From the NCBI GenBank assembly GCA_016934455.1, contig JAFGSX010000259.1, positions 1 to 51,142 on the forward strand: a stretch of DNA of 51,142 nucleotides, written 5' to 3'. Positions 1,739-51,142 of the stretch are shown piece by piece. The translations under genes and the position numbers were made by a program. A model generated the notes under the pieces. The model was not told where the DNA came from. It saw only the letters and a list, made by a program, of their open reading frames with translations, and searched no databases. This stretch comes from Deltaproteobacteria bacterium. GTDB lineage: Bacteria > Myxococcota > JACRCW01 > JAFGSX01. Each line of letters starts with the position of its first letter. Position 1 is the stretch's first letter.

Positions 1739-1835
1739 GGTCCCCTCCCGATGAAAGGCAGATGGGCGAGATGACTCAAAGTGTAGCAGGCGACCCTTGG
1801 CGTGCCAGGAATTGTTGGCGGCGATTGGCCGCTGA

Positions 1836-5607: not shown

Positions 5608-6587
5608 TCGCGGCACGGCACGCCACAACTGACCGGCTTGCACACGCCGAAACAGTCGCGGTGGCTTCTGACCTGGACGGAGCAATTTCCGGTGCAGCGG
5701 CATTCGAAAAAGCAGGGATCGCCGTAGCCGGAGACGCAGCTCGTGCAGGCGCCGCTCCAGCATTCGGCGTCCTCCCCGCACGACGTGCCGTCGTGCTCGA
5801 ATTCGTCCGTGCACTGGCCGTTGCTGCAACCGTAGACGTGGCAGGGTTCGCTGCCGCTGCAATCGCGGCACAGCGCGCCATTGACGCCGCAGGAGTGCAA
5901 CTGGGTCCCGGCCACGCAGCCGCCGTCGGCAGCGCGGCACGCCAGCGGGGCGCAGGTCGCGCAGGTCGGTGACTCACCGAGGCAGTTGTTCTGCGTGCAG
6001 TCCTGCTCCAGTTGGCGCGCGCCGCAACCGAAGCTGTCGACCTCGCAACTGTAGACGTCGCCGTCGTGGCAGTGGACGCCACTGCACTCGTCGACGGAAC
6101 AGACGCACTGCCCGTCCGGCGTGCACTGCGAGTTGGCGCCGCACACGCCGTCGACGCAGTCGCTCCACTGCACCAAGTCGATGCACACGCGGTGGCCGCA
6201 CTGCTCGCACGCCGGCGGAGCGGTGCCGCCGCTGCAGGCGCCGTGGCACGCGATCGTGGCGCCGCAGGAGCCGTCCTCGGCGCACGGCGCACCGAACCCG
6301 TCCACGCAGCCCGCGTCCACACGGGCAGCGTCCGCGCGGCCAGCGTCGATCGCGACGCAGATCCAATCGCGGCAACTCTCGCCCGCGGCACACGCGTCGT
6401 CGCTCTGGCACCGCGGCGCCTGGCACCTGCCGCGCACGCATCTCAGGCCGGGCGCGCAGGCCTCGTCCCCCTGGCACGGCAGCCCCTCGCCGCCTCCCAT
6501 CGCGACGCACATCTCGCATCCGGTCAAGGCGGCGAGCGCGGCCAGGGCGGCCAGGGCGGCCGCGGTTCGCGGATGGCGTCGCGGCAT
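5601..6587 (-). CDS. Cysteine-rich secreted lipoprotein (52 Cys in 328 aa by my count)
   Basis: GGTGGA-N4-ATG at 6587. The signal is MPRRHPRTAAALAALAALAALTGC. The remainder is C-x(2-8)-C repeats resembling myxobacterial Cys-rich repeats. The stop overlaps the pbpC start by 7 nt. Confidence 0.75.
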   Translation of the reverse strand: MPRRHPRTAAALAALAALAALTGCEMCVAMGGGEGLPCQGDEACAPGLRCVRGRCQAPRCQSDDACAAGESCRDWICVAIDAGRADAARVDAGCVDGFGAPCAEDGSCGATIACHGACSGGTAPPACEQCGHRVCIDLVQWSDCVDGVCGANSQCTPDGQCVCSVDECSGVHCHDGDVYSCEVDSFGCGARQLEQDCTQNNCLGESPTCATCAPLACRAADGGCVAGTQLHSCGVNGALCRDCSGSEPCHVYGCSNGQCTDEFEHDGTSCGEDAECWSGACTSCVSGYGDPCFFECRCTGNCSVQVRSHRDCFGVCKPVSCGVPCREC

Positions 6588-16600: not shown

Positions 16601-18974
16601 GTTGCACGCCCTGGCCCGATGTGTCCAGGGCGTAGCGGCCCTTCTGGCCCACGCTCAGCTCCTGCTGCACCAGATCGCCGGCCCGGGCCCGGAAAAAGAC
16701 CTCGCCGTCGGCGCGCACGGCCGGCCCCCGGGTCGCCGGCCGCCGGCTCAGCAGAACGGATGCGCGGCCCCTGCTCTGGCCGACCGTCTTGGCGGTGGCC
16801 AGGTAGCGGCCGGGCCGCAGGTAGCCGGCGAGCAGACAGTTGCGACCGCGGCCGCCGCTGCGGTCTCTAGCGAGCTGCGGCGCCACCGGCGTGCGCAGCC
16901 GGCACTCGGTCGCCAGCAGCCCCTCGGTCGTCAGGTGATAGAGGCCGGCCTCGGCCACGTCGAACAGCAGCGAGTGCGACTCGGAGCGGTCGAAATCGAG
17001 ATAGATCGGCTTGCCGACGCCGATGGCCGGGATCGGGGCGAACCTGGGCGCGTAGCTGGCCAGCACCGGCGCCGGAGGTCGCGGCCGGGGCCGGCCGACC
17101 ACGGCGGTGACCCCGTCGACGCTGCGGTTGGTCAGGATCAGCTCGTCGCCGCTGGCCAGCGCCGGCAGCGCGCAGACGCCGTCTCTGCCGGCCACCGGAG
17201 CCCCGCTGCGCAGCGCGCAGGTCAGCGCACCGACCCCGCGCACCAGCCCGGCGCGTCCCGCCGCCGACGGCAACCGGACCTCGCTCTGGCCGTCGACGGT
17301 GATCGGCAGCGGCGTGTCCAGCGTCAGCGGCAGCGGCCGCAGCACCAGGCCCCGCGCCTGCACCTCGCCCAGCCGGTTGGTGCGAATGCGGTAGCGAACG
17401 CCGGCGGCGAGCGCGACGTCGGAGAAGCGGCAACCGCTCTTGCCGGGCGTCGGCTGGATCTCGGGTGGCTGGTCCGATTTCTTGGTGTTGGTGAATCGAT
17501 CGATCACCGACTTGAGCAGGCCGCCCTCCCGGTCGATGACCAGCTTCTCGATGCCGGCTTGGCCGCCATAGAAATTGAGCTGGTACTGCCCCGGACCGAG
17601 CCGGAGCTTGAGGTCGCAGCGCTTGGCCTTGGGGTCGCTCTTGGTCAGCCGATGGTCGCCCTGGTACAGCTCGCATATCGCCCGGGTCTCGCCGGAGGAG
17701 GCGATGCGGTACTCGCCCGACTCGAGCAGCTCGAACCACAGCGTGTAGCCCTGCTCGCGCAGGTTGAACTGCCGCGAGAACGGGTGCTTGCCGTCGATGC
17801 GCAGCGCGTCGACGGCCATCCGCTGCCACTGCCGGTCGGGCTGCCGCCGCTCGAGCGCGCAGCCGAGCGGCGGCGCATCGAAATCGGTCGGCACGTCGTG
17901 CAGCCCGATCAGGTAGCGCCCGGCCGCCGGCGCCTGGAACTCGAGATCGCCCTGCGTCAGATACTCGCCGTCGGCGAGCAGCCCCTTGGGTCTGGGCGCC
18001 CACTGGAGCTGGCCGCCGGTGCCGGGCTCGCCGGTGACGACCAGCAGGTGGCGTTTCTTTCCGCTCGCCGAGGTGGCGCACGCCGGCGCCACCGCCTTGG
18101 CCGCGACGCTGCAGCTTCCGCCGCGGCCGCCGGTCGCGCCACCCGCCGAGTCCAGCTCCCAGAACTCGAGCGACGTCGCCGCGGCCGGCGCCTGGTCGAG
18201 GCTGAGCGTCGCGAAGTGGGGCCCGGCGCCGATCTCGATCCACAGCCTGCCCCACGCCGGCAGCGCGAAGTCCAGCGTGCGCTCGGCGGGCGCCAGCGCG
18301 AAACCGTTGGCGACGTAGAGCGCGTCGTCCTCGCTGCCGCGCGTCCACCGCTGCGGCCGGGCGCCGTAGGCCACCAGCAGGTAGTCGCCGGCCTCGAGCC
18401 TGCCGCGCAGGTGCCAGAGCCATATCGGTTGCCCCGGCCGCGGGGCCAACTGCTCGCTGGCGGCCTCGATCTCCTCGACCCACTGGCCGTTGCGCCACAG
18501 CCGCACCAGCCCGGCGCTGCGGCCGGCCACGATCAGATCGACGCGGCGCGGCTTGTCATTGTGAATCCAGTGCGAGACCTGCTGGCCGGGCGCGAGCCTC
18601 AGCTCGGCCGACTGCCGCTCGTCGAGCCGCACGCCGCCGGGGTTGAGCTCGGCAAACGGCGCGACCGCGAGCGCCACCTGGCCCTTGCCCTTGACCGGCG
18701 ATCGCAGGCGCAGTTTGTAGCTGCCGCTGTCGAGCAGCAGATCGAGCTCGCAGTTGCTGGTACCGGACGCGCCGCTGCTGTCGAACGGTCCGCGCAGGTG
18801 GTCGACGATCTCGCACGCCGTGCCCGAGTCGCTGCGGGCGCTCAGGTGATACATGCCGGCGGCGTCGATGGTGAGGATCGCCTCCTGCTGGCCCCGGGCC
18901 GGCACCGTCGCCGGTTTGACGGCAAGGCCGGGGACGGCACACAGCAGAGCGAGCGCAGCGACAGTGAGCGACAT
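13608..18974 (-). CDS. 1788-aa secreted multi-repeat protein (two-Cys, PPC-like beta-sandwich modules); function unknown
   Basis: GGGGAG-N5-ATG at 18974. The signal is MSLTVAALALLCAVPGLA. A repeated AG.Y.L ... C.L ... C.L..L..G.Y.L module recurs. An acidic low-complexity insert lies mid-protein. The stop is fused to the A2M start (ATGA). Confidence 0.85.
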   Translation of the reverse strand: MSLTVAALALLCAVPGLAVKPATVPARGQQEAILTIDAAGMYHLSARSDSGTACEIVDHLRGPFDSSGASGTSNCELDLLLDSGSYKLRLRSPVKGKGQVALAVAPFAELNPGGVRLDERQSAELRLAPGQQVSHWIHNDKPRRVDLIVAGRSAGLVRLWRNGQWVEEIEAASEQLAPRPGQPIWLWHLRGRLEAGDYLLVAYGARPQRWTRGSEDDALYVANGFALAPAERTLDFALPAWGRLWIEIGAGPHFATLSLDQAPAAATSLEFWELDSAGGATGGRGGSCSVAAKAVAPACATSASGKKRHLLVVTGEPGTGGQLQWAPRPKGLLADGEYLTQGDLEFQAPAAGRYLIGLHDVPTDFDAPPLGCALERRQPDRQWQRMAVDALRIDGKHPFSRQFNLREQGYTLWFELLESGEYRIASSGETRAICELYQGDHRLTKSDPKAKRCDLKLRLGPGQYQLNFYGGQAGIEKLVIDREGGLLKSVIDRFTNTKKSDQPPEIQPTPGKSGCRFSDVALAAGVRYRIRTNRLGEVQARGLVLRPLPLTLDTPLPITVDGQSEVRLPSAAGRAGLVRGVGALTCALRSGAPVAGRDGVCALPALASGDELILTNRSVDGVTAVVGRPRPRPPAPVLASYAPRFAPIPAIGVGKPIYLDFDRSESHSLLFDVAEAGLYHLTTEGLLATECRLRTPVAPQLARDRSGGRGRNCLLAGYLRPGRYLATAKTVGQSRGRASVLLSRRPATRGPAVRADGEVFFRARAGDLVQQELSVGQKGRYALDTSGQGVQLQCRLDDRDGWPLVAVPTPCRASHELARGRYRWSQLPLTVESMRRTEIRRVRPALVLRGNKRRHAIDVNTWYDAELGRDGRDEFQFTLSADLPVRVALTNGMQGRLYRVDGDREKLIETVPPAEPPAAGSEEDEEEYEQEYEEEPDEMPVEEGGEDEGYDEGGDGEEEMPDGSGGDVDDEGDGALSDGETPDPAYQPPPAAARRKPSGDDNLAVDLKAGRYRLVTEHCRGDVAIAYRLRVVSEVLAPGLQQELPVPGSATVRMPAAGMLHLATRGQTDVRCRLFAAGGALLAESADYGADWNCRLVEPLPAGDYRLVFEAQNQRSGSTRVKVVAPPDRRLDRLVDGAKLKTANQALVVPLPAVEGDAVQELHFRSKSAFSCALERGDGTVLQREDSVRHCQLLVHAAGQPFNVRLWTKGRWAELTASHQARPIGKLHGRTVAAGRAGRVDIARPGRYRTAANVWCRPAAEPGLLSPCGPSAPLEAGALVVSTVGQRDELRLDLDEMVIELSADDNPAVREQLGQRRLIERQRSGQPGLHLVAVRVPFGEAAAPACRLEGGVAEQQPHACFAASGATRESLLRLWAATDKPLPATVTRIAALIPERAATLAPGKSEATWSGQVGRFALPDAPFQLEATLPPQTWAVQLDRAGAAIDFCPPGEALSRCLLAGQGGELLLRGGDGSRLQARLLLVDAAPPQVVLRGLYEALPLQHGQLRLRVPPAAGARLVEVDGEVRCTITRDDGSRSGGCRGAIPARQGAEVVINHPPGPLRAVVFAPGQPNVARWSKLLPRKLPPPLGEARAIPIKPGVNDFTVEIRQRSLLDVRADSGVGALFDGTRLLKLDGLGGACTLQRLLEPGRYRVMLRPFAGAPATGSVSWTAEPVPALADGVGAEQWIAPGAARYFSFRTTSAGRVGLGLQVDADRLECTVLDVNHRLLGHGCQQFLELPAGNYLLAVRAPPELAPQRFRPVLLGLKGSQRDVPEEYLRDFFQRIGATP

Positions 18975-19079
18975 GGGACTCCCCGCGTGAATACACAGCC
19001 GGGCATCACCTTAGCGTGCTATGGGAATCGGAAAAAGGCGCGCGCCCCGAGCCGCCGCCGTCGGCGATCTGCGGCCAGC

Positions 19080-35089: not shown

Positions 35090-35461
35090 TCACGGCTCGC
35101 GCCGCAGCAGCGCCTCGACGCTGGTGCGAAAGGACTTGACGGTCTGCAGATAGCCGGCGTCGTCGACGCCCAGGTAATCGTGGACGCTGAGGTTGCGGTC
35201 CTCGAGAAAGCCCAGCCACGCCTCCGCGTCGTCGAGCAGGCCCATGCGGGCGGCGGTCTTGATGGCGTCGCGCGGGCTATGCGCCTCGAGGCCGTGCTCG
35301 GTGGCCACCGCCTTGAGGTACTTCCAGGCGTACTCGAAGCAGATCTCGAAGCTCTTGGCGATGCCGGCGGCATAGAAGGGATCGCTCTTGGCCTTCTTGG
35401 CAAAGGCCAGGGCATGCGCCAGGGCCAGGCTCGCCTCGGCCAGCCTACTCTTGTCGGCCAC
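35090..35461 (-). CDS. HEPN-domain protein (HI0074-like nucleotidyltransferase substrate-binding protein; putative toxin)
   Basis: A 123-aa ORF with the R-x4-H motif in EDRNLSVHDY. It overlaps the upstream MNT gene by 17 nt. Confidence 0.8.
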   Translation of the reverse strand: MADKSRLAEASLALAHALAFAKKAKSDPFYAAGIAKSFEICFEYAWKYLKAVATEHGLEAHSPRDAIKTAARMGLLDDAEAWLGFLEDRNLSVHDYLGVDDAGYLQTVKSFRTSVEALLRREP

Positions 35462-36008
35462 GACTCACCTCTGCCTGCAGCCGCAGCCAGTCGCCCTGTC
35501 GGCCGGCCAGGAATAACCAGCTCCGGGAGATCTGGCGCAGGAAACCGGCCGGGGCGCGGTTGAGGTTGACCAGGTCGACCGCCACCGGCAGCGCCTCGGC
35601 CGCCTCGGCCACCAGCACGCGCATCGCGCGGTACTGTCCGTGGTCAAGCCCGTCCCGGCGGTAGACGCCGATGTCCCAGTCCGCGTAGCGGCCGGCCGTG
35701 CGCCGCGCGCGCGAGCCGAACAGCACCAGAGCGGCTTCGGGGAAACGCTCGTGCAGGCGGTCCACCAGCGGCGCGATCTGCTCCAGACCGCGCGCCGGGT
35801 CCGGATCGACGCGCACGATCGCCTGCTCGATCGGAAGCCCGAGCTGATCGAGCAGGCGCTCGAGCTTGGCGGGCAGCACCGGCTTGCCCGAGAGGTAGTA
35901 GTGGACCGTGTTGCGGTGCAGGCCGGCGGCCGTCGCCAGCTCCTGCAGCGAGCGATAGCCGCGCTCTTTGGCCGCCCGGCGGACGGCGCTGGGGTCCACT
36001 ATATGCAC
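35445..36008 (-). CDS. HTH-fused minimal nucleotidyltransferase (MNT; putative antitoxin)
   Basis: YRSLQELATAAGLHRNTVHYYLSG is an HTH. LVLFGSRARRTAGRYADWDIGVY is the GS..DxD NTase motif. The track start TTG 36032 falls inside the predicted promoter, so GTG 36008 or 35999 is more likely. Confidence 0.75.
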   Translation of the reverse strand: MHIVDPSAVRRAAKERGYRSLQELATAAGLHRNTVHYYLSGKPVLPAKLERLLDQLGLPIEQAIVRVDPDPARGLEQIAPLVDRLHERFPEAALVLFGSRARRTAGRYADWDIGVYRRDGLDHGQYRAMRVLVAEAAEALPVAVDLVNLNRAPAGFLRQISRSWLFLAGRQGDWLRLQAEVSRGRQE

Positions 36009-36014
36009 AAAAAT

Positions 36015-36043
36015 ATTATGCAATGCATACAATTATTAGTCAA
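36015..36043 (-). promoter_or_regulatory. Near-consensus sigma70 promoter TTGACT-17-CATAAT, with the palindrome TATGCA-t-TGCATA (36017-36029) in the spacer and -10 region
   Basis: Read from the minus strand, within the only strongly AT-rich patch of this region. The palindrome arms are perfect 6-mers. Confidence 0.5.
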
Positions 36044-36118: not shown

Positions 36119-37627
36119 TCACGGCACGATCACGATCGTCTCGTTGACGTCCAGCACGTTCCACAGCCGGTCGATGTGGGCGTTGTCGAGCGCCACGCAG
36201 CCCCAGGTCCAGTCGTAGTCGCCGGTGTCGTCGCCGCCGCCGTGCACCTCGATGTAGCTACCGAGTTCGGTGTCCTGCGGCGGCGCCGCGCAGCTCTGCT
36301 GTGCGCTCACGATCGCATCGTGCTGGCTCTGGTCGATCAGGCCGGCCTGCAGCCCGCGCGCGGCATCGGCCGCGTCCGGATAGCTGATCAAATACGCCTC
36401 GTAGTAGGACGAGACCCCCTGCGGTATCTTGGACGCCGCGTAGAACACGCCCTCGGGCGTCTTGTAGTCGCCCTCGCGCTCCTTGTCGCCGACCGGAGCG
36501 TAGGCGCTGAGGCCGACGCTGAAGTTGGCCACCAGGCTGCCGCAGTCGCACAGCGCCAGGTTGCGCGCGCTCTTGTGCACCACCGCGTAGTCGTCCGGCA
36601 CCAGGTCGCACGGCGACAGGCCAGCGGCCCAGGCCGCCGCGCAGTCGCCGGCGCCGACGCCCGGGTTCCACAGCGGGTGGTGCTCCTGGGCCGAGCCCGG
36701 CCAGCAGACGTCGAACTCCGGATCGCAGACGTAGCCTTCTCCGCTGCGGCAGTCGCCGGCGCCGCCGCAGTCCTCGAGGCAGGCGAAGATGCCGACGTCG
36801 AGCAGGTGAAAGCAGGTCGATCCGGTCGGGCAGCCGGCCAGGTCGCACATCTGCTTCGAGCAGTAACCGCCGGGCAGATCGAGGCAGGCCGAGTGGCCGC
36901 AGGCGGCGGGCGCGCCGCAGGCGGCTCCGATGTCGAAGGCGGGCGCGCTCTCGCCCGGCCACGCCTGGGTCGCCGACGGCAGGCAGACCGCCGCGATCCT
37001 CGACGGATCGCCGTAGCGCTGCCGCAGCACGCAGGTGTAACCGGGGCGGCAGCCGGTCGGCGACTTGTCGAAATGGCAGGTGGCGACACAGCGCGGATCG
37101 CCGCCGGCGTCGATGCAAAAAGACATCGTCTCGGCCGCGGCGATCGGCTGGTGGTCCGGGCACACCCAGGAGCTGCCTGGTTGCGTGCAGGACTGGGTAC
37201 ACAGGCCGCCCGAGAAGCCGGCGGTCTCGCAGATCGCGGTGCTGGTGTAGCCGTCGAGGCTGCATTCGCCCGCGCCGCTGCAGGCGCCGCCGATCCAGCC
37301 CGGGTTGAGCTCGACGCCCGGGTTGCCGGCGTCGGCGGGGGCGGATGCATCGACGGGATCCAGGCCGAGGTCGCGCGGGCCGCTGTCGACGGGCCGGGCG
37401 TCGCGGCCGACCGCGGTGTCGCGGCCGGTGGCGCGATCGCCGCCCCCGGCGTCGACGGCGCCCAGGTCGCCGCCGCCCAGATCGGCGCTCGCGGCGTCGA
37501 ACGCGGCATCGGGCAGGTCGACGCCGGCGTCCTCGTCCGCCGCCGGTGGCGCGTCGCAGGCCGCGACAGCCCACACCGCCAGCGCGGCGATCGGACCCAG
37601 CGCGCGCGATCTGCCTGCGAGCGGCAT
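36119..37627 (-). CDS. Cys-rich lipoprotein with a C-terminal L,D-transpeptidase-fold domain (YkuD/YafK-like)
   Basis: GAGG-N5-ATG at 37627. The signal is MPLAGRSRALGPIAALAVWAVAAC. Two Cys-rich modules follow (IGGACSGAGEC.. and IGAACGAPAAC..). The C-terminus reads ..GDKEREGDYKTPEGVFY..IEVHGGG..TWGCVALDNAHIDRLW. Confidence 0.8.
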   Translation of the reverse strand: MPLAGRSRALGPIAALAVWAVAACDAPPAADEDAGVDLPDAAFDAASADLGGGDLGAVDAGGGDRATGRDTAVGRDARPVDSGPRDLGLDPVDASAPADAGNPGVELNPGWIGGACSGAGECSLDGYTSTAICETAGFSGGLCTQSCTQPGSSWVCPDHQPIAAAETMSFCIDAGGDPRCVATCHFDKSPTGCRPGYTCVLRQRYGDPSRIAAVCLPSATQAWPGESAPAFDIGAACGAPAACGHSACLDLPGGYCSKQMCDLAGCPTGSTCFHLLDVGIFACLEDCGGAGDCRSGEGYVCDPEFDVCWPGSAQEHHPLWNPGVGAGDCAAAWAAGLSPCDLVPDDYAVVHKSARNLALCDCGSLVANFSVGLSAYAPVGDKEREGDYKTPEGVFYAASKIPQGVSSYYEAYLISYPDAADAARGLQAGLIDQSQHDAIVSAQQSCAAPPQDTELGSYIEVHGGGDDTGDYDWTWGCVALDNAHIDRLWNVLDVNETIVIVP

Positions 37628-37634
37628 CACCACC

Positions 37635-38264
37635 TCACTGCGACGCGCTGTCCGTCGTCGCCTGGCGCGCCTGCTCACCCTCGAGCGCGGCGCCGAGCAA
37701 CAGGCTGTCGAGCAGCCGCTTGGCGCTGTCGTCGAACTTGTTGCCGCCATCGAGGCGCGCGCGCACGGCGATCGCGAACAGGTAGGTGCCCGCATCGAGG
37801 TCGGCCAGAAGCTGGTCGGCCAGCACCATGCCCCCGGGCGGCGGACAGCTCCAGGTGATCGACGCCGCGGGCGCGGTCGGCACCGGCGCCGCGCAGGCCG
37901 GCGGCAACGCGTCGGCCGCGGCCGCTGCCAGAGCCGCCGCGCGGTCGTCGCGATCGAGCTCGCTGGCGATCCTGGCTGCCTCCCCCAGCGCGCCCAGCAC
38001 CTCCGGGCAGCTTGCGCCCAGGCCGGCGAGCGCCGGCCGAACGCGCCGGATCGGCGCGACGGACTCGACCGCGGGCAGCGCCGCCCTGAGCTGGTCGCCG
38101 CAGGTGGCGACACCGCCCTCGCCCGTCGGGTCGCCGCCGCCAGCGCTGCCGCCGCGGCCGCTCGCGGTCGTGGCGCAGCCGACGACGGACAGCCACGCGG
38201 CGAGCAGAGCGCTCGCCAGCGCTGCTGCGTTCACCGGCAACCGCCCTGTCGATCGTCCGTTCAT
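37635..38264 (-). CDS. Putative lipoprotein, function unknown
   Basis: A 209-aa ORF. LASALLAAWLSVVGC is a lipobox signal. The stop lies 7 nt before the next start. Confidence 0.6.
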   Translation of the reverse strand: MNGRSTGRLPVNAAALASALLAAWLSVVGCATTASGRGGSAGGGDPTGEGGVATCGDQLRAALPAVESVAPIRRVRPALAGLGASCPEVLGALGEAARIASELDRDDRAAALAAAAADALPPACAAPVPTAPAASITWSCPPPGGMVLADQLLADLDAGTYLFAIAVRARLDGGNKFDDSAKRLLDSLLLGAALEGEQARQATTDSASQ

Positions 38265-42413: not shown

Positions 42414-43961
42414 ATGACCGGCCGCTGGCGATCGCTCGCGTGGATGACTGCCCTGGCCGCTTCTGCCGGTTGCACCTGTGGCAGTACCTTCAGGACCACC
42501 TGCAGCAGCGACGACCAGTGCCCGACCGGATACCTGTGCCGCGCCGACCTCTGCCGGTTGGCCGGCGCCGACACCGACGCCGCGGCCGACGACGGATCGC
42601 AGCCCGACGCCGGGCCCGGCGATTGCGCGACCGCACGCGACGGCCAGGCGTCAGACCTGTCACGGCACGACGGCAACGCCGACGGCTCGCAACCGGACGC
42701 CGCGCTGCCGGACCGCGGTCCTGTCGACGGTGGAGCGAGCAACGATGCCGGACCGCTGGACACCGGGTCTCTCGAAACCGGCTACCTCGATCGCGGCCCG
42801 GCGCCGCCCTGCGGCACCACCTCTGTCTACCAGGACGACTTTACCGATGGCCTGCAGCCATATTGGCTGCGGCCCGAGCAGGAAGGGGCGCACCTGGCGA
42901 CAAGCTCGAGCGGGCTCCAGTTAACGACGCCGGCCGTCGTGCAAGATCCGGTCTATGCCTATGCCGGAGTGATGACGCCCTACCAGGTCGAGCTGCTGGC
43001 CGACGCGCTGACCGTCCACGTGACCGCAGCGGACATGCCAGACGGGAGCGAGGCCTTCGTGGAGCTCTGGCACGACGAGGAGAACACCATGCGTTTCATG
43101 GTGAACGCAGGGGTCCTCTATGCAGACATCGTGGGGCCGGGAAATCCGCCGTCACAGCGGATCGGGCCGCTCGCCAATTTCGTCCCCGGCTTCTGGCGCA
43201 TCCGCGAGCAAGGTGGATCGGTAGAGTTCCAGACGCGCGTCGGCGTCTCGGAGTGGCAGACGCACTGCACCACTGCCACCGCGCTGCACCTGACGCGCGG
43301 CCACATCTCGCTCGGGCTGGGGGCGTATTTCGCGAACAACACGCCGGCCACCATAACGTTCGGCAGCGTCAACCTGGACCGCCCGGCCACCACCTGGTGC
43401 CGGGCCAGCTCGTGGCAGGATGATTTTGATGACAGCAGCCTGCGGCCCGAGTGGGCCATCGCGCTATACCCCGACAACCACTGCTCTGTGACGCTGCAGG
43501 ACCAGAAGCTGCGTATATCTAATCTGGCGGGGGGGGGGAGCTACTGCGGCGTGCTGACCGGCAGCGCTTACAACTTGGTCGACGACAGCATCTCGATCGA
43601 GATGACAGAATACCCGACCGGCACCCTGGTCTTCCCGCTGCTGACGGTCCAGGGGGGCGGACTGACAATCAACTATGGCAAGTGGAACAGCTCGCTGGAC
43701 GTGCAGATCCGTGACCAGAGCGGGATCATCTGGGGCTGGCAACAGCCGTTCGCGGGCACCGAAAGGTGGCTGATCATCAGCCATTATGACGACGGCCTGA
43801 TCTCGTTCGAGTACCAGGCGCTCCAGGACGGCCCGCTGTTTCATTTTGCAGCCACCCAGACGTCGCTGCACCTCGACCAGGTCGCCATCGGCGTGGTGAG
43901 CTGGTGCGGCGACGGGTGCGACGCCAATGGCGCGCTGGTCGTCGACAATTACAATTTGTAG
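42414..43961 (+). CDS. Lipoprotein with two jelly-roll/LamG-like halves
   Basis: The signal is MTGRWRSLAWMTALAASAGC, followed by a D/A/G-rich linker. There is an internal duplication: each half opens with ..YQDDFTDGLQPYW.. or ..WQDDFDDSSLRPEW... TATACT lies exactly 7 nt before the ATG and there is no SD. Confidence 0.7.
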   Translation: MTGRWRSLAWMTALAASAGCTCGSTFRTTCSSDDQCPTGYLCRADLCRLAGADTDAAADDGSQPDAGPGDCATARDGQASDLSRHDGNADGSQPDAALPDRGPVDGGASNDAGPLDTGSLETGYLDRGPAPPCGTTSVYQDDFTDGLQPYWLRPEQEGAHLATSSSGLQLTTPAVVQDPVYAYAGVMTPYQVELLADALTVHVTAADMPDGSEAFVELWHDEENTMRFMVNAGVLYADIVGPGNPPSQRIGPLANFVPGFWRIREQGGSVEFQTRVGVSEWQTHCTTATALHLTRGHISLGLGAYFANNTPATITFGSVNLDRPATTWCRASSWQDDFDDSSLRPEWAIALYPDNHCSVTLQDQKLRISNLAGGGSYCGVLTGSAYNLVDDSISIEMTEYPTGTLVFPLLTVQGGGLTINYGKWNSSLDVQIRDQSGIIWGWQQPFAGTERWLIISHYDDGLISFEYQALQDGPLFHFAATQTSLHLDQVAIGVVSWCGDGCDANGALVVDNYNL

Positions 43962-44137: not shown

Positions 44138-45073
44138 ATGGGAGATCAGGTGCGCAACGTCATCATCGTCGGGTCAGGCCCGGCCGGCCTGACCGCGGCC
44201 ATCTACACCGGCCGCGCCAACCTGCAGCCGCTGGTGATCGAGGGCGCCCAGCCGGGCGGCCAGCTCATGATCACCACCGAGGTCGAGAACTTTCCGGGCT
44301 GGCCCGAGGGCATTCAGGGGCCGGAGCTGATGGCCAAGCTGCGCGAGCAGGCGGCCCGCTTCGGCGCCGAATTCGTCACCGCGGATGTCGTCGAGGTCGA
44401 TCTCAGGCACCGGCCGTTCACGGTCAAGACCGACAGCGCGGCCTTCCGCGGCCAGACCGTCATCGTCTCGACCGGCGCCACGGCCAACCTGCTCGACCTG
44501 CCCGAGGTGCCCAAGCTGATGGGGCGCGGGGTCTCGGCCTGCGCCACCTGCGACGGCGCCTTCTTCAGGAACCAGGACATCGTCGTCGTGGGCGGCGGCG
44601 ACAGCGCGATGGAGGAGGCCGGTTTTCTCACCCGCTTCGCCCGCACCGTCACCATCGTGCACCGCCGGGACGAGCTGCGCGCCTCCAAGATCATGGGCGA
44701 GCGCGTGCGCCAGAATCCCAAGATCGAGTTCGCGCTCTCCAGCACCATCGAGCGCATCCTCGGCGACCAGAGCGGCGTCACCGGCGTCGTGCTCAAATCG
44801 ACCAAGGACGGCCGCACCAGCGAGCTGCGGTGCAGCGGCGTCTTTTTCGCCATCGGTCACACGCCCAACACCGCGCTGTTCAAAGGCCAGCTCGGCCTCG
44901 ACGCCAAGGGCTACATCAAGACCCGGCCTGGCTCCAGCTACACCGAGGTCGACGGCGTCTTCGCCTGCGGCGACGTGCAGGACCCGACCTACCGCCAGGC
45001 CGTCACCGCGGCCGGCTCCGGCTGCATGGCGGCCATCGACGCCGAGCGCTGGCTCGAAGGGCACCGAGGCTGA
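44138..45073 (+). CDS. trxB: Thioredoxin-disulfide reductase
   Basis: GGGAGAGAG-c-[19 protein letters not shown] is the FAD motif, CATCDG the redox-active site, and [12 protein letters not shown] the NADPH motif. The protein is 311 aa. Confidence 0.9.
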
Positions 45074-45080
45074 TAACTTT

Positions 45081-45107
45081 GACCTCCTCGGTTGATCTGC
45101 GGAGGTC
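45081..45107 (+). promoter_or_regulatory. SD-sequestering hairpin: GACCUCC, 13-nt loop, GGAGGUC
   Basis: A perfect 7-bp inverted repeat. The 3' arm is the SD, 3 nt before ATG 45111. Confidence 0.45.
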
Positions 45108-45110
45108 GCC

Positions 45111-46739
45111 ATGCGTCGCCCATCTTCATTCGCGTTGCTCGTCGCCACCGTTCTCGCCGCCGGCTGCCCGAGCCAGGCCGCCGAGAAGGCCGCGGCCAAG
45201 ACCTGGAGCGGGCCGGCGCCGGCCGTGGTCGAGCGCAAGGTGTTCGGGCCGATCAAGGCCGGCTCCTGGTACCCCGGTTCGGCCGACGAGCTCAACGCCA
45301 TGCTCGACGGCTTCATGGCCAAAGCGCAGCCCCAGGCCCCGGCCGGTCGGGTGGTGGCGCTGGTCTCGCCCCACGCCGGATACCAGTGGTCCGGCCCGAC
45401 CGCGGCCCATGGTTACGCGCTGCTCAAGGGGCAGGCCTACCAGCGCGTGATCGTCATGGCGCCCAGCCACAGCACCGGCTTTGGCGGCTTCTGCGTGCTC
45501 GACGCCGAGGCGTACCGCACGCCGCTGGGCGAGATCCCGATCGACACCGCGGCCACCGCGTCGCTGCGGCGCGCCGCCGACCACCGCGATCCGCCGCGGG
45601 TCTGGGCCGACGAGCACGCGGTCGAGATGCAGCTCCCGTTTTTGCAGCGCGTGCTCAAACCGGGCTTCAGGCTGGTGGCGATGCTGGTCGGCGGCAACTC
45701 GAGCGACGACCAGTTGCAGCGGCTGGCCGACGCGCTGGCGGCGCTGGCCGACAGCCAGACCCTGGTCGTGGTGTCGTCGGACTTTACCCACTACGGCGCC
45801 AATTTCGGCTACCTCCCTTTCACCGACAACGTGGCCAAGAGGCTGCGCAGCGACCTGGCGGTGCCGGCGACCGACGCGATCGTGAGGCTGGACCTGGCCG
45901 CGTTTGAGGCCCACCTCAAGAAGACCGACGACACCATCTGCGGCCGCGAGCCGATCAAGGTGCTGCTGCGGATGAAGCCCAACGCCACGGCCAAGCTGCT
46001 GGCGCTGCAGACCTCGGGCGACCAGACCGGCGACTACCGCAGCAGCGTCAGCTACGCCGCGATCGCCTTCGTCGACGAGAAGAACGCGGCGCGCGCCTTT
46101 GCCGCCGGCGCCGGCGGCGACCTGGCGCCGTCCTCCAAGCCCGTTTTCCGGCCCTCGGACAGCGGCCTCACCAGCGACGAGAAGAAGGCTCTGCTGTCGA
46201 TCGCGCGCGCCTCGCTCACCGACCACTTGACCAAGGACGGTTCGCTCAAGAAGCTGGGGTCCACGCTCAAGTTGACGCCGGGCCTGCTGCTCGAACGGGG
46301 CGCCTTCGTCACCATCAACCTCAAGACCAAGAACCGCGAGGGCGTGCCCGAGCTGCGCGGCTGCATCGGCCACATGACGCCGACCGCCAGGCTGCACGAG
46401 CAGATCGCCGGGCTGGCGATCGACGCCGGCACCCGCGACCCGCGCTTTTCACCGATGACCGCGGCCGAGCTCAAGAACGTCGATTTCGAGATCTCGATCC
46501 TGTCGCCGATGCAGCCGGTCAACTCATACCGCGACATCGTCATCGGCAAGCACGGCATGACACTCGAGAAGAGCGGCCGCCACGCCGTCTTTCTGCCACA
46601 GGTGGCGCCCGAGTGGGGGTGGGATCTGCCGACCACGCTGACCCACCTGGCGCGAAAGGCGGGCCTGGCCGGCGACGCCTGGCAGGAGGGAGCCCGCTTC
46701 CAGGTCTTCACCGCCGACGTCTTCGGCGAGGCCGAGTAG
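45111..46739 (+). CDS. Memo (AmrB-like) / AMMECR1 (AmrA-like) fusion protein with a lipoprotein-type signal peptide
   Basis: The signal is MRRPSSFALLVATVLAAGC. Memo motifs: AGSWYPG, SPHAGYQWSG, DEHAVEMQLPFL, SSDFTHYG, ICGREPI. AMMECR1 motifs: LRGCIGH, DPRFSP, EISILS, GKHG, FLPQVAPEWGW. Confidence 0.85.
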   Translation: MRRPSSFALLVATVLAAGCPSQAAEKAAAKTWSGPAPAVVERKVFGPIKAGSWYPGSADELNAMLDGFMAKAQPQAPAGRVVALVSPHAGYQWSGPTAAHGYALLKGQAYQRVIVMAPSHSTGFGGFCVLDAEAYRTPLGEIPIDTAATASLRRAADHRDPPRVWADEHAVEMQLPFLQRVLKPGFRLVAMLVGGNSSDDQLQRLADALAALADSQTLVVVSSDFTHYGANFGYLPFTDNVAKRLRSDLAVPATDAIVRLDLAAFEAHLKKTDDTICGREPIKVLLRMKPNATAKLLALQTSGDQTGDYRSSVSYAAIAFVDEKNAARAFAAGAGGDLAPSSKPVFRPSDSGLTSDEKKALLSIARASLTDHLTKDGSLKKLGSTLKLTPGLLLERGAFVTINLKTKNREGVPELRGCIGHMTPTARLHEQIAGLAIDAGTRDPRFSPMTAAELKNVDFEISILSPMQPVNSYRDIVIGKHGMTLEKSGRHAVFLPQVAPEWGWDLPTTLTHLARKAGLAGDAWQEGARFQVFTADVFGEAE

Positions 46740-46818: not shown

Positions 46819-47997
46819 ATGCGCGACACCGATGACAAACAGATCCCGGCCTGCAGCCCGTCGCTGCTGAGCCCGCGGCTGGTCGAGCAGATCCGCGAGC
46901 TGGCCGCGCGCTGCGATGGGCCGTTCTACGTCTACGACCAGGCGGCCATCGAGCAGAACTGCCGCGACTTCCTGGCCATCCCTTACGCAGACAAGAGCAT
47001 CCACTTCGCGTCGATGGCCAACTCGACCCGCCGCTTTCTCGAGATCGTGCGCGGCGCCGGTCTGCAGATCTTTGTCAACTCCCCCGGCCACCTGGCGCTG
47101 GCGCGCGAGATCGGCTTTGCCGGCCAGCAGATCGTCTACACCTCGTCGGCGATGGACGACGGGCTGCTGCGGCTGGCGCACGACGCCGGCGCCATCGTCA
47201 ACCTCGACTCGATGGGCCAGCTCGCGGCGTGGCGCCGGCTTTTCGGCGACGAGCCGGTGGGCATCCGCTGCAACATCGGCGAGCTGGTCGAGCCGCGGCC
47301 GACGCTCGCCGGCTACTTCCTGGGCAAGCAAAGCAGGCTCGGCCTGACCGTCGACGAGATCGAGTCGCTCGCCGGCCAGCACGGCATCGCCGGACTGCAC
47401 GTCTACGTCGGCACCGACATCCTCGATCTCGGCTACTTTCGCGACTGCTACCAGCAGCTCGCCCGGCTGACCAAGCTGTTCCCCGCGCTCCGGTTCGTCG
47501 ACTTCGGCGGCGGCTTTGGCCTGCCGCACAACAGCGACGCGCCGTTCCCGATCGAGCAGTATCGGGACCTGGTGACGGAGCTGATGACCCGGCTGTCGAA
47601 CGAGCTGGGCCGCTCGATCCGCCTGCTCCTCGAGCCCGGCCGCATCATCGGCGGCGCGGCCGGCTTCTTCGTCTGCCGGGTCACCGACGTCAAGCTGCGC
47701 GGCGACTGGCAGCTCATCGGCCTCGACGCCTCGTCCACCCAGTTCCCGCGGCCGCTCTTCTACCCCGCGGACGCCCGACATCCGGTGACGCTGCTCGACG
47801 CAGCGGATCGGAGCGTGACGCTGCGCTCGTCGCTGTACGGCTGCTCGACCTACTCGCGCGACTTCTTGGCGCGCGATCTCCAGCTCCCGGCGACACGCAT
47901 CGGCGACCTGGTCGTGCTCGGCCAGGCCGGCAGCTACTGCGCCACCGCCTTCACCCATTTTCTCGGCTTCGAGCCAGCGACCGAGTTTTTCGTCTAA
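46819..47997 (+). CDS. Orn/DAP/Arg decarboxylase-fold (group IV, alanine-racemase-fold) protein lacking the PLP-binding lysine
   Basis: PFYVYD.., ..FGGGFGLP.., ..LLEPGRIIGG.. and ..LYGCSTYSRDFL.. align with E. coli LysA as I remember it. The FAQKACSN position reads FASMANST here. Confidence 0.8.
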   Translation: MRDTDDKQIPACSPSLLSPRLVEQIRELAARCDGPFYVYDQAAIEQNCRDFLAIPYADKSIHFASMANSTRRFLEIVRGAGLQIFVNSPGHLALAREIGFAGQQIVYTSSAMDDGLLRLAHDAGAIVNLDSMGQLAAWRRLFGDEPVGIRCNIGELVEPRPTLAGYFLGKQSRLGLTVDEIESLAGQHGIAGLHVYVGTDILDLGYFRDCYQQLARLTKLFPALRFVDFGGGFGLPHNSDAPFPIEQYRDLVTELMTRLSNELGRSIRLLLEPGRIIGGAAGFFVCRVTDVKLRGDWQLIGLDASSTQFPRPLFYPADARHPVTLLDAADRSVTLRSSLYGCSTYSRDFLARDLQLPATRIGDLVVLGQAGSYCATAFTHFLGFEPATEFFV

Positions 47998-48064
47998 TCT
48001 CTCGGCACCGCAGCCCTGGGGGACCACAATCGCAGAGCTGATCATCATCGTTGTCCTGGCGACC

Positions 48065-51000
48065 TTGATCTTCTCGATCATCGGATTCGTCGTCACCCTG
48101 CAGAAGATCTTCGGAATCCGACCCGCGCCGGCGGTCGTCCCGCTGTCGCGACGAAAGAAGCTCGAGCTGGTCGAGGAGGTGCTCCGCGACCGCATGCCGG
48201 ATGACCTGAAGCGCGAGCTGGCGAGATGGCGCGGCCAGCCGTCGCCGGCGGTCTCGAGCACCGCAGCGGCCATCCCCGACGGGGCCGCAGACGAGGCGGC
48301 CCCTCAGTCGGCGGCAGCGGAGGTCGCGCTGACAGCGGAGGTCGCGCTGACAGCGACGGTAGCCCCTGGCGGCGAGGCCGCCGCCGCGCTCGACGTCGAT
48401 GTCGCGCTGTTGGCCGACGACCGACCGCTGCCCGTCAGCGACGAGGTAAAGGCGATCGCCGCCGCCGCCCACCCCGGCCTGCGCGCCTTTCTCTCGTTCG
48501 AGAACATCATATTCTCGCTCTCCTCGATCCTGATCCTCGGCGGCACGCTCTACTTTGCGGCCATCACCTGGAGCCAGGTGCCGGGCAACTGGCAGTACTT
48601 CTTCGTCGAGGCGATGACCGGCTTTTATGGCTCGATGATGCTGGTGGGCGCCTGGCTGTTGGTGCAGCGGCTGGGTTTGGAGAGCGCCGGCCGCATTCTC
48701 ACCGCGATCGCGTGCGGCGTGAGCGCCGTCTGCGCGGTCATCGCGGCCGCCGCCTTTGAGCAGTCCGCGGCCGCCGGACTGCTCGGATGCGCCCTCGCCA
48801 GCGGCATCGCCTGCTGGGCGGCGTCGGCGTTTGCCCGGCTCCAAAGGCAGACGAGTTCGACGGCATGGGCTTTTGCCGCCGCCGTCGGCCTGGTTGGCCT
48901 GGCCGGCGGTCTGGCCGAGCTGCGCGGCGGGATCGGGGTCGGCGCTTGCCTGCTGGCCGCCAGCGCCCTGATCGGCGGGATATTCGTCGGCCGAGCATCT
49001 GCGCCGAGGACGACGCATCTGGTGGTGGCGCTCGCCGTGCCGACGGTAAGTTTTTTGCTGCTCGCGGCGCGCCCGATCGAGCTGCAGATGATCGCTCCGG
49101 CACTCGCCGCGCTGGCGTGGGCCGGGCTGGATCTGCGCCGCGCCGACCGGCGCTGGGCCACACCGCTCACCATGGCGCTGGTCGCGGCAGCAGCGATCCT
49201 GGCGTTGCCGTCCATCGGGGCGGTGGCGGTCGCCGCCTGCGCCGGCATCGCGGCCTGCTGGCGCTGCTCGCAACCGCTGGACGCCAGCGCCGACGACGCG
49301 CGGCGCTCGCGGCCGGTGCTCGTCGCCGCTGGCCTGGCCGCCGCGCTGTGGGTGGCGCTCGCCATGATCTGGGCGCCCGCGATCGGCTCCGCCTTTCCGC
49401 ACTGGCTCAAGCAGTGGTTCGTCGACCTGATCACGAGCCCGGGAGAGCGCGTCGCCGCGTCTTGGGACGGGCTGGCCGCATTGCCGTCCATGGCGCTCGC
49501 GCTCTGGCTCGCCGACCGGCTGCGCCGAGAAGAGGACCGTCGCGCTCTGATCGTCGAGCTCGCAGCCTGGGTCACCCTCGCCTTGACGGTGGCCGCCTCG
49601 CTCGCCACGCTGCAACGCCAGCCGGTGCCGACCGCGATCATCCTGGGGCTCTGCTGTGCCCTCTGGTACGGCTGGGGTTGGCGACGCGCGACGGCGGCGC
49701 GCTGGAGCGGCGCCCACCTGGCGCTGCTGTTCGTTGCCGGCGCCAGCGGATACGCCGGCGGCCCGCATCTGGCCTGGATCAGCGTCGCGATCGTCGCGCT
49801 CGCGCTGTTCGCGGTCGCCGGCAAGAGCGGCCGCATCGTCGGCGTGTTCGCGTTGCCGATCGCGGTGCTCGCGGCGCTGGTCGAGGGCCATCTCCAGGGC
49901 AGCGGCGCGGCGCTATTGCTCGCGCTCTATGGCGCGCTCGCGGTCTGGCAACTCCGACCTCCCAGGCTCTCCTGGGTCTCGCCGTTCGGGCCACCGGCGC
50001 TGCTGGCCGCCCTGCAGATCGCGCTCTATTTCGAGTCGAGCGAACAGGCGGCATTGCTCGATGCGCGCTATTTCTTGCTGACGCTGGCGGGCGGGGTCGC
50101 CGTGGCGAGCGGCATCGTGGCGTTGCGGCGCGGCCCGCTCTTTCTTCACGCCGAGATCAACGCCGCCGCCGCCGCGCTCGTGTTTTTCGGCACCGCGGTG
50201 GCCACGGGCTTCGAGCGCGGCTCCATCGACGCCGCGATCAACGCCAGCGCCGCCGCCGTGGTGCTGCTGGGCGCGCTGGTCGCTGCGCGCGCGGCCGCGG
50301 GATTCCGGGCGCGGCTCGCCTGGGCGATCACCATGTTCGCCCTGCCCTGGCCAGCCATCTTCCTGACCGACTGGATCATGGGCTGGCCAGGCGCCCTGAT
50401 CGCGGCGCTCGGGCTGGTGGCGCTGGCAGCGGTGTCGCGGCGAGAGCAGAGCAGTTGGCTGGCGGGCGTCGGTTTGGGCGAGGGGCTGATCGCCGCGCTC
50501 TGGGCGACCCTGGCGGTGGCCGAGGTATTTTCGACCGGCGGCGGCGAGGAGCGGGTGTTGACCGCGCTCGCCTTGGCCGCGGTTCTGTACGGCGGCGCCG
50601 TCGCCGCTCTGGGCGAGCGCCTGACCGCGGCCAGCGACCGCCTGGTGCGCGGCTTTGCGCTCGCCTGCCTGGCGCTGGCGCTGCTGCTCGGGGCCGCCGG
50701 CATCGGCCTGGTCGACGAACCCGACACCGTCGACGTCGCGCTGGCCGTCGCCGCGCTGATCGGCGTCGGGCTGTTCTCGGTCCAGTTGGCGCTGCGCGAC
50801 GGCGCTGGTTGGCCGGTCTTACTGGCCGAGACGGCGCTGGTCGTGCTCTACGGTTACCTGCGCGGCCGCACCGACTGGCTCGCTTTCTGCGATGACTACG
50901 ATGCGGTGGTGCTGGCCGTGTTGTCGTTTGCCTACCTGGGGCTGTCGCACTGGCTGGCCTCCACCCGCAGCGCGCTGGGCAGCAGAGAGAGCCTCCGCCT

Positions 51001-51142
51001 GGCCTCGCTGTTGCCGCTGGCGATACCGTTCGTCATGCAGTGGCACGGCGGGTTCGAGGATTCGTTCTCGCTGGTGCTGGCCAGCGTGCTGTATGTCGTG
51101 CTGGCTTTCCAGCAGAACAAGATGCGCTTTGGCTGGCTGGCC
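48065..51142 (+). CDS. Large polytopic membrane protein, 3'-partial (runs off the window); start undetermined
   Basis: It is not in the ORF track because there is no stop in the window. I translated the frame with codon starts at 48002+3n by hand, and it is open from 47348 to 51142. The third codon position is GC-rich. There are many hydrophobic helices (..IIFSLSSILILGGTLYFAAITW.., ..VVALAVPTVSFLLLAA.. and others). Candidate starts are TTG 48065, GTG 48179 and ATG 48194. Confidence 0.65.
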   Translation, partial: MIFSIIGFVVTLQKIFGIRPAPAVVPLSRRKKLELVEEVLRDRMPDDLKRELARWRGQPSPAVSSTAAAIPDGAADEAAPQSAAAEVALTAEVALTATVAPGGEAAAALDVDVALLADDRPLPVSDEVKAIAAAAHPGLRAFLSFENIIFSLSSILILGGTLYFAAITWSQVPGNWQYFFVEAMTGFYGSMMLVGAWLLVQRLGLESAGRILTAIACGVSAVCAVIAAAAFEQSAAAGLLGCALASGIACWAASAFARLQRQTSSTAWAFAAAVGLVGLAGGLAELRGGIGVGACLLAASALIGGIFVGRASAPRTTHLVVALAVPTVSFLLLAARPIELQMIAPALAALAWAGLDLRRADRRWATPLTMALVAAAAILALPSIGAVAVAACAGIAACWRCSQPLDASADDARRSRPVLVAAGLAAALWVALAMIWAPAIGSAFPHWLKQWFVDLITSPGERVAASWDGLAALPSMALALWLADRLRREEDRRALIVELAAWVTLALTVAASLATLQRQPVPTAIILGLCCALWYGWGWRRATAARWSGAHLALLFVAGASGYAGGPHLAWISVAIVALALFAVAGKSGRIVGVFALPIAVLAALVEGHLQGSGAALLLALYGALAVWQLRPPRLSWVSPFGPPALLAALQIALYFESSEQAALLDARYFLLTLAGGVAVASGIVALRRGPLFLHAEINAAAAALVFFGTAVATGFERGSIDAAINASAAAVVLLGALVAARAAAGFRARLAWAITMFALPWPAIFLTDWIMGWPGALIAALGLVALAAVSRREQSSWLAGVGLGEGLIAALWATLAVAEVFSTGGGEERVLTALALAAVLYGGAVAALGERLTAASDRLVRGFALACLALALLLGAAGIGLVDEPDTVDVALAVAALIGVGLFSVQLALRDGAGWPVLLAETALVVLYGYLRGRTDWLAFCDDYDAVVLAVLSFAYLGLSHWLASTRSALGSRESLRLASLLPLAIPFVMQWHGGFEDSFSLVLASVLYVVLAFQQNKMRFGWLA

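Follow-up and report, generated by a model that had tools for sequence, protein, structure and literature searches.

Does a protein that joins a Memo (AmrB) and an AMMECR1 (AmrA) domain work in the cytoplasm, as is presumed for the AmmeMemoRadiSam system, or is it exported to the cell envelope? The question is raised by an open reading frame (ORF) at positions 45111-46739 of a contig from a Deltaproteobacteria bacterium. The contig, hereafter the window, is one complete 51,142-bp contig of a metagenome-assembled genome (MAG), and the gene lies within 4.4 kb of its downstream end. The original prediction, made from the letters of the window, had described a Memo-AMMECR1 fusion with a lipoprotein signal peptide and with no radical S-adenosylmethionine (SAM) partner nearby. 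We consider it likely that the protein is an exported lipoprotein, a redox enzyme located in the envelope, whose usual partners have become separated from it in the window lineage.

Both Memo and AMMECR1 have links to human disease, and their conservation extends from archaea to humans. To our knowledge, descriptions of AmmeMemoRadiSam present a set of three genes and do not speak of export. Memo is reportedly linked to nucleotide-base and isoprenoid modification, and no established biochemical reaction for Memo or AMMECR1 was found in the literature searched. AMMECR1 is counted among the top-priority uncharacterised archaeal families (PMC6393860), and a passage in PMC7159879 credits the 'Memo-Ammecr1 systems' to Burroughs et al. 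2019 (J Biol Chem; PMC6664185). The protein family and its name are already known, and the fusion is common.

The ORF and its domains are as follows.

45111..46739, + strand: AmrB-AmrA (Memo-AMMECR1) fusion lipoprotein precursor, complete ORF with an ATG start, 542 residues and a stop codon
45252..46070, + strand: Memo/AmrB domain, residues 48-320 (PF01875, TIGR04336, MEMO1 match, Foldseek)
46071..46187, + strand: flexible interdomain linker, residues 321-359 (predicted local distance difference test, pLDDT, below 50 at residues 334-342)
46188..46736, + strand: AMMECR1/AmrA domain, residues 360-542, with Cys418 in the LRGCIG motif (PF01871, TIGR04335)

The protein is 100% identical to the NCBI entry 'AmmeMemoRadiSam system protein B [Deltaproteobacteria bacterium]'. 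Pfam places the Memo domain (PF01875) at residues 48-318 with an E value of 6.9e-58 and the AMMECR1 domain (PF01871) at residues 363-538 with an E value of 1.2e-46. Each half also passes its curated NCBIfam cut-off, the AmrB half with 210.2 bits against 26 (TIGR04336, residues 48-320) and the AmrA half with 145.5 bits against 99 (TIGR04335, residues 360-538). Every motif quoted in the original prediction was found, the domain identity is far above chance for both domains, and the description of one 542-residue fusion was borne out by both databases.

An AlphaFold model, built with an alignment of 88 sequences, has a mean pLDDT of 91 and contains two confident domains. The linker between them shows a larger non-synonymous share of changes than the domains on either side. 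Human MEMO1 matches the fusion with an E value of 4e-37, and Foldseek gives a template modelling (TM) score of 0.86-0.87 with 32% identity. At the metal site, His88, His120, Asp224, His227 and Cys277 each pair with the same amino acid in MEMO1, and Cys277 aligns with the residue altered in Protein Data Bank (PDB) entry 7m8h, the 'C244S metal binding site mutant' of MEMO1. The window Memo domain resembles MEMO1 (PDB 3bcz; 7kq8, iron-bound; 7l5c, copper-bound) in its fold and in these residues; in contrast, MEMO1 is a stand-alone cytosolic eukaryotic protein without a leader or an AMMECR1 fusion. The AMMECR1 half matches PDB 1zq7 (E 1.3e-27) and 1vaj (E 8e-23), with Foldseek TM scores of 0.68-0.74, and E values over the archaeal structures span 1e-27 to 1e-16. 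It shares the RGCIG cysteine with the archaeal proteins PH0010 (1vaj), MM0484 (1zq7) and ST0229 (1wsc), which it resembles with TM scores of 0.62-0.74. Those proteins are stand-alone, leaderless chains, whereas the window domain is the C-terminal half of a predicted exported fusion.

The five metal-site residues and Cys418 are invariant across 88 fusions. Fusions linked to AmrS, the radical-SAM member of the system, have 91 alignment columns that are at least 90% conserved; the whole window subclade (five members) matches at 87 of these, and its only consistent departures are Ser170Ala and Leu402Ile. The enzyme in the window looks functional, with both catalytic modules apparently intact.

Translation start and leader

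The N terminus of the window protein was compared with those of the four other subclade members, which come from loci L001 (87% identical protein), L090 (85%), L088 (59%) and L003 (57%). The elements at the start of the gene are listed below.

45101-45105, + strand: Shine-Dalgarno sequence GGAGG, 5 nt before the ATG; the counterpart stretch in L003 is gtGGAGGtggtc
45111..45167, + strand: predicted lipoprotein signal peptide of signal peptidase (SPase) II type, residues 1-18, and lipobox Cys19 (PS51257, conservation)
45168..45251, + strand: Ala/Pro-rich tether between the putative lipid anchor and the Memo domain, residues 20-47 (pLDDT, codon comparison)
45225..45227, + strand: in-frame GTG at codon 39, the candidate cytoplasmic start, rejected here

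The 12 nt ahead of the ATG, gcGGAGGtcgcc, are identical in the window, L001 and L090, and the stretch ahead of the ATG in L003 is gtGGAGGtggtcATG. The strong Shine-Dalgarno sequence noted in the original prediction is therefore conserved in orthologues. Behind it, the N-terminal sequence MRRPSSFALLVATVLAAGC satisfies the PROSITE PS51257 lipobox rule in its regular-expression version, and its cysteine falls inside the required range of positions 15-35. It can be divided into an n-region (MRRPSS), an h-region (FALLVATVL) and a lipobox (AAG followed by Cys19). The cysteine after the lipobox is present in 5/5 subclade members (LAAGC, LITGC, VVTGC, LITGC and LVTAC), and the four orthologues also satisfy the strict pattern [LVI][ASTVI][GAS]C, from which the window departs with Ala at position -3.

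The codons of the leader have changed in two different ways. Between the window and L001, 10 of the 19 codons for residues 1-19 differ non-synonymously while hydrophobicity is retained, a pattern typical for a signal peptide. Codons 20-38 contain 5 synonymous and 0 non-synonymous differences, and this count becomes 6 and 0 when it is extended to codon 47. Because change in codons 20-38 is synonymous only, that stretch appears to be translated and under purifying selection. The G+C content at third codon positions (GC3), in frame across 45111-45224, is 0.87. In the AlphaFold model residues 6-17 form a helix with low pLDDT, and residues 18-34 are disordered (pLDDT below 50).

The caveat attached to the original prediction was that translation might begin at the GTG at 45225, which would make the product an ordinary cytoplasmic AmrB-AmrA fusion and the leader merely an untranslated open frame. 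The codon does exist, it is retained in L001 and L090, the Memo profile begins just 9 residues beyond it, and canonical Memo and AMMECR1 proteins are leaderless. As a start, however, it lacks an upstream Shine-Dalgarno sequence, whereas the conserved GGAGG lies 5 nt before the ATG, and the codons preceding it carry the signature of purifying selection just described. Five lineages, down to 57% identity, retain Cys19 and its lipobox; L088 offers no start codon where 45225 would fall, and a leader is found in 85% of homologues across phyla. We regard a start at the GTG as highly improbable. Orthologues beginning at the equivalent of 45225 without a signal peptide had been named as the observation that would speak for it; instead, the N-terminal alignment shows that all of them keep the leader. 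On conservation, then, translation is judged to begin at ATG 45111, and the predicted lipoprotein-type leader is genuine, in agreement with the original prediction. The practical outcome for the gene is a corrected annotation, as a lipoprotein starting at 45111.

Export and gene order across the family

The best 120 database matches are all Memo plus AMMECR1 proteins of 478-580 residues from many phyla. A scan with one genome per species found encoded relatives in at least 595 species-level genomes; its best match had 46% identity, and the source MAG was not among its matches. A hydrophobic leader lies ahead of the Memo motif in 98 of 115 homologues in which that motif was recognisable (85%, across phyla), and 48 of the 115 carry a PS51257-type lipobox. 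As controls, 33 of 600 internal 45-residue segments scored as a leader, and none of 120 N termini of a cytoplasmic decarboxylase-like family did so. Solved MEMO1 chains begin at most 8 residues from the domain boundary and archaeal AMMECR1 chains at most 2, and these proteins thus have no leader. Given 98 leaders in 115 homologues, the presumption of a cytoplasmic system, on which the original prediction had drawn, fails for the fused clade. That prediction had also presented fusion and apparent export as special to this locus. Both are true of the window protein, but they are the norm of a large bacterial clade, to judge from its predicted leaders, and not a peculiarity of the window. Exported fusions as a rule suggest that in this clade the enzyme pair works outside the cytoplasm.

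Clearly leaderless fusions were seen at six loci (L037, L038, L045, L068, L071 and L086), all of them without an adjacent AmrS or NapH-like partner (described below). They suggest a separate, possibly cytoplasmic subgroup.

Many of the homologue leaders lack a lipobox and resemble SPase I signals or plain transmembrane anchors. Together with the non-canonical Ala at -3 in the window, this would fit an envelope protein that is targeted without being lipidated, either held by an uncleaved type II anchor or cleaved by signal peptidase I. Against this, the window sequence fits the PROSITE lipoprotein rule, and every one of the five subclade members has a cysteine at residue 19, preceded by [AT][GA] and right behind an h-region that has itself diverged. 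A leader of this non-lipoprotein kind is, in our estimate, quite unlikely in the window, and a lipoprotein remains the preferred assignment.

The usual surroundings of the gene were surveyed at 80 species-representative loci, whose fusions share 35-46% identity with that of the window. Radical-SAM genes resembling AmrS occur in 52/80 loci, in 42 of them immediately upstream of the fusion and in the same orientation. A giant FMN_bind/NapH-like membrane protein occurs in 43/80, directly downstream in 38, and 41/80 loci have both. Of the 42 loci whose flanks reach at least 5 kb on each side, 15 contain neither partner. With 339 bits against a TIGR04337 cut-off of 220, the upstream gene qualifies as a genuine AmrS; its product is PflA-like and lacks a SPASM domain. 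A leader was seen at 48 of the 52 AmrS-containing loci, so the exported state and linkage to AmrS coexist.

At the 45 loci where AmrS adjoins the fusion, a short gap separates the two genes, and 43 of these gaps hold an ORF that encodes a twin-arginine motif, M[KT]RRxF[LI], and a hydrophobic stretch; it belongs to no family besides TAT_signal. A conserved tail, '...YPG.[VI][KR]PL......GKW[AS]G', closes 33 of the 43; as extracted, these 33 peptides have about 50-70 residues. The small ORF could be a peptide partner or a substrate of AmrS. Examples of this ORF, with its twin-arginine translocation (Tat) signal, and of the giant partner are the following.

L004 7746-7985 and L006 7756-7980: small Tat-signal ORF (33 aligned examples within L006-L085)
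L004 9573-13181 and L006 9510-13592: giant membrane partner, 1200-1360 residues, downstream of the fusion

The N terminus of the giant partner is a membrane region with weak similarity to polyamine aminopropyltransferases. Its FMN_bind domain is of RnfG type and contains DAMTGAT or DTVSGAT, which are flavinylation-type T/SGAT motifs, and it carries a NapH/NosR-type Fer4_5 (PF12801) iron-sulfur module. An ApbE gene lies nearby in L004. The usual order in the clade is AmrS, small twin-arginine ORF, exported fusion, giant NapH-like protein.

The window subclade departs from this order. Its five members form one branch, nested among linked lineages in a neighbour-joining tree, and AmrS, the NapH-like partner and the small Tat ORF were all absent within reach at the subclade loci. 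No AmrS was detected in the window by tblastn with three AmrS proteins or by a three-sequence hidden Markov model (HMM) run on six-frame ORFs of at least 50 residues. A Pfam scan of most GC3-supported window ORFs, leaving out 10-2376(-) and 36119-38113(-), gave no Radical_SAM domain, and a CxxxCxxC scan of all window ORFs of at least 150 residues gave no radical-SAM candidate. The earlier statement that no radical-SAM partner lies nearby therefore stands for the 51-kb window. No AmrS was found within 10 kb on either side in L001, L003 or L088, and L001 reaches 10 kb further downstream than the window. For the small Tat-signal ORF, a 33-sequence HMM gave best E values of 0.04-0.2 in the window and subclade, which is noise, and no FMN_bind plus PF12801 partner was found in the window or the subclade loci by tblastn or HMM. 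Unlinked fusion loci elsewhere are scattered across the tree, which indicates that dissociation has occurred repeatedly. The window gene is a natural 'unlinked' variant, useful for asking about function without AmrS.

Two divergently oriented radical-SAM/SPASM genes are located at 13037-15652 of L003, 1.5-4 kb downstream of the fusion. They were rejected as AmrS, since their best NCBIfam matches are SPASM maturases and all are below cut-off.

Proposed working of the exported fusion

We propose that the precursor is exported via Sec from the start at ATG 45111, that signal peptidase II cleaves it before Cys19, and that Cys19 is then lipid-modified. The mature fusion would be tethered at the periplasmic face of the membrane by a disordered stretch of about 28 residues. 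It would bear a metal centre of Memo type, built from His/His/Cys (plus Asp/His), together with an AMMECR1 domain that keeps the RGCIG cysteine. By extension from its relatives, it may be an envelope metalloenzyme that carries out redox chemistry on a periplasmic or membrane-embedded substrate, with the NapH-like partner passing electrons across the membrane. The step catalysed by AmrS would precede export and take place in the cytoplasm, with the precursor, the small Tat peptide or a membrane substrate as its target. In the window lineage the gene would have split from AmrS, the small ORF and the NapH-like partner, which may be elsewhere in the genome or lost, and would now stand in a block of trxB, the fusion and a decarboxylase-like gene that lacks the catalytic lysine. 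We infer export, cleavage, lipidation and tethering from the leader, and the redox role and substrate class from the partners at relatives' loci.

The clade context yields three hypotheses: that the pair is an electron-requiring or electron-yielding metalloenzyme, that its substrate lies in the envelope, and that AmrS acts upstream of export. The interest lies mostly in this family-level pattern and less in the window copy.

NapH-like proteins that combine FMN_bind with PF12801 have been described as transmembrane electron conduits to or from extracytosolic oxidoreductases, mostly of unknown reaction (Meheust et al. 2021, PMC8238504). The giant partner in 43/80 loci resembles these flavinylated systems in its T/SGAT FMN_bind and PF12801 Fer4_5 domains; it differs in adding the polyamine-aminopropyltransferase-like N-terminal membrane region, and it is absent from the window. 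Neither that survey nor its 2024 follow-up mentions Memo, AMMECR1 or radical SAM.

The window protein resembles the AmmeMemoRadiSam system (TIGR04335/TIGR04336/TIGR04337) in that its AmrB and AmrA halves score above the cut-offs, and distant relatives adjoin a genuine AmrS. In contrast to that system, the pair is fused, carries a lipoprotein signal, and has no AmrS in the 51-kb contig or within 10 kb on either side in L001.

Several points weigh against our reading. The lipobox calls come from the PROSITE PS51257 rule coded as a regular expression and not from a dedicated predictor, and the window has Ala instead of Leu, Val or Ile at position -3. The predicted TM score (pTM) of the fusion model is 0.64, which leaves the relative placement of the two domains uncertain. 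No experimental precedent for exported Memo or AMMECR1 domains was found. The electron-conduit and redox assignment was drawn from other loci, whose partners are not seen in the window. The AmrS search for the source genome covers this one MAG contig and does not distinguish relocation from loss. Finally, AmrS is cytoplasmic, so an exported partner creates a topological puzzle, which is explained by analogy only.

The analogy is with cytoplasmic radical-SAM maturases of exported proteins, such as anSME, which acts with sulfatases, and QhpD, which acts with QhpC of quinohemoprotein amine dehydrogenase. There, as may be the case in the canonical loci here, a cytoplasmic radical-SAM gene stands beside an exported enzyme or a small exported peptide. 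The cases differ in that there is no sequence relationship, AmrS is PflA-like without SPASM, and modification by AmrS is hypothetical.

The same logic might hold for the clade as a whole: an extracytoplasmic redox enzyme supplied with electrons by a flavinylated NapH-like protein, with AmrS serving as a maturase or in cofactor biogenesis before export, and the window lineage retaining an intact enzyme without adjacent partners, paired with the Lys-less decarboxylase-fold protein. We put this fuller scheme forward tentatively and doubt that all of it will hold. No account of the fusion as an exported protein, of its NapH-like partner or of the small Tat ORF was found in the literature searched, which did not include Burroughs et al. 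2019, so a prior description is possible.

Neighbouring genes in the window

Three genes flank the fusion on its own strand.

44138..45073, + strand: trxB, thioredoxin-disulfide reductase, 311 residues, cytoplasmic (TIGR01292, 394 bits against 343; CATC motif)
46819..47997, + strand: Lys-less decarboxylase-fold protein, 392 residues (Orn_Arg_deC_N and Orn_DAP_Arg_deC in Pfam)
48053..51142, + strand: giant polytopic membrane protein, truncated at the end of the contig (L001 orthologue at 12907-16449, 65% identity)

The TIGR01292 match agrees with the earlier assignment of trxB as the preceding gene, and the trxB stop codon lies 37 nt ahead of the fusion ATG. The gene is also upstream of or near the fusion in L001, L003 and L089, and its end is visible upstream in L090. 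It accompanies the fusion in all subclade lineages with sufficient sequence, with extra genes between the two in L003 and L089. A glmU-like gene stands ahead of trxB in L001 and L003. The proximity of trxB looks like inherited synteny (glmU-like gene, trxB, fusion), which is the simplest reading. Directly upstream of trxB, at 42414-43961 (+), the window encodes a predicted lipoprotein of 515 residues (MTGRWRSLAWMTALAASAGC...) that has a stretch rich in Cys at its N terminus and belongs to no Pfam family. An unrelated 495-residue lipoprotein is encoded between trxB and the fusion in L088/L089.

The gene downstream of the fusion encodes a two-domain fold, a TIM-barrel N domain and a beta-sheet C domain (PF02784, E 2.8e-17; PF00278, E 1.4e-11), and its best PDB matches are diaminopimelate (DAP) decarboxylases (E 7e-25). 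All NCBIfam decarboxylase equivalogs are below cut-off. The protein shares both Pfam domains and the GGG and EPGR motifs with fold-type III decarboxylases that depend on pyridoxal phosphate (PLP), such as LysA, NspC and the ornithine and lysine decarboxylases. It differs from them at the active site. Met66 (codon 47014-47016) occupies the position of the PLP lysine, in 'FASMAN' versus the 'AVKAN' of DAP decarboxylases, so that the usual internal aldimine cannot form. 'STYSRD' stands for the catalytic 'ICETGD', with Thr-Tyr in place of the catalytic Cys-Glu. The L001 and L088 proteins have the same Met and STYSRD residues.

These substitutions are shared by the family. Its 120 closest homologues, 53-100% identical, come from Bacteroidota, Cloacimonadaceae, Spirochaetia and others. 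The site motif was recognised in 100 of them, with Met in all and Lys in none, and GCSTYSRD is present in 116/120. The Lys-less family is strongly conserved, with 53-67% identity across phyla. Since the substitutions are kept family-wide, this is a conserved protein and not a decaying pseudogene. The original description of a Lys-less decarboxylase-fold gene is confirmed, and it applies to the family as a whole.

The fusion is followed by this gene in the window, in L001, in L093 (a duplicate contig of the window) and in L088, which amounts to 3/5 subclade lineages. In L088 the decarboxylase-like protein is 67% identical and the fusion 59%. This order could mean that an AmrS-independent fusion and the Lys-less protein make up a new unit, possibly co-transcribed with trxB, in which the latter is a binding or regulatory subunit or a substrate supplier. 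The genes lie on one strand with short gaps of 37 and 79 nt, no terminator is predicted between them, and both are away from their usual radical-SAM-rich modules. The promoter and terminator scan carries little information, since it returned no promoter-like site and its terminator-like matches fell inside genes. However, the decarboxylase-like gene is not next to the fusion in L003 (57% identical) or in L090 (85% identical; its downstream neighbour is a convergent gene), and none of the 80 other species loci has a family member adjoining the fusion. The decarboxylase-like family has no leader (0/120), so the two proteins would reside in different compartments, and close relatives share gene order through descent. 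We think a new unit unlikely and retain the exported enzyme separated from its partners as the preferred explanation. The decarboxylase-like gene is a lineage-restricted neighbour of the fusion.

A link between the decarboxylase-like family and Memo-AMMECR1 beyond the subclade was considered and rejected. Two lookups in other lineages, a Bacteroidales MAG and one other MAG (L091 6443-15429; L092 8001-14049), place the gene in a cluster that is conserved and also encodes two unannotated proteins of about 350-395 residues and three or four radical-SAM enzymes, mostly B12-binding. The other members of this cluster were not found near the window gene or its L001 counterpart.

The membrane protein of more than 1000 residues that had been predicted downstream is polytopic and runs from 48053 to the contig end. 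Its L001 orthologue has 1180 residues and about 26 transmembrane-like segments, and the two are 65% identical over 1033 aligned positions (L001 residues 1-1020). A short, charged helix of cytoplasmic appearance lies near the N terminus. The window protein has no family in Pfam or NCBIfam, where it gives a sub-threshold TgpA_N match only. It was found only in the window (L093 is the same contig in duplicate) and in L001, whose fusion is 87% identical, and not at the L003, L088 and L090 loci. Homology to the giant FMN_bind/Fer4_5 partner was rejected, as none was detected by tblastn or HMM. The window giant protein is no conserved partner of the fusion. Linkage of the downstream genes to the fusion across genomes thus holds for the decarboxylase-like gene in three of the five subclade lineages and nowhere else, and for the giant protein only in L001.

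The remaining genes of the window have unrelated envelope or housekeeping functions, including a PBP1C-type transglycosylase, alpha-2-macroglobulin (A2M), a Ser/Thr kinase, a sigma-54 activator, a HepT/MNT pair and tdh-kbl. The PBP1C-type penicillin-binding protein is encoded at 3220-5973 (-) with Transgly, Transpeptidase and BiPBP_C domains, and near it a very large A2M-like gene occupies 7786-19010 (-), which we take to be the known bacterial A2M-PBP1C pairing. Two long ORFs, 7786-15060 and 13608-19010, make up the A2M region; they are in different frames and share about 1.4 kb, which may reflect a frameshift, an assembly error or the presence of two genes. At 35090-36032 (-) lies a pair of HepT-like and nucleotidyltransferase genes, the latter (MNT) with a helix-turn-helix, which has the appearance of a type VII toxin-antitoxin module.

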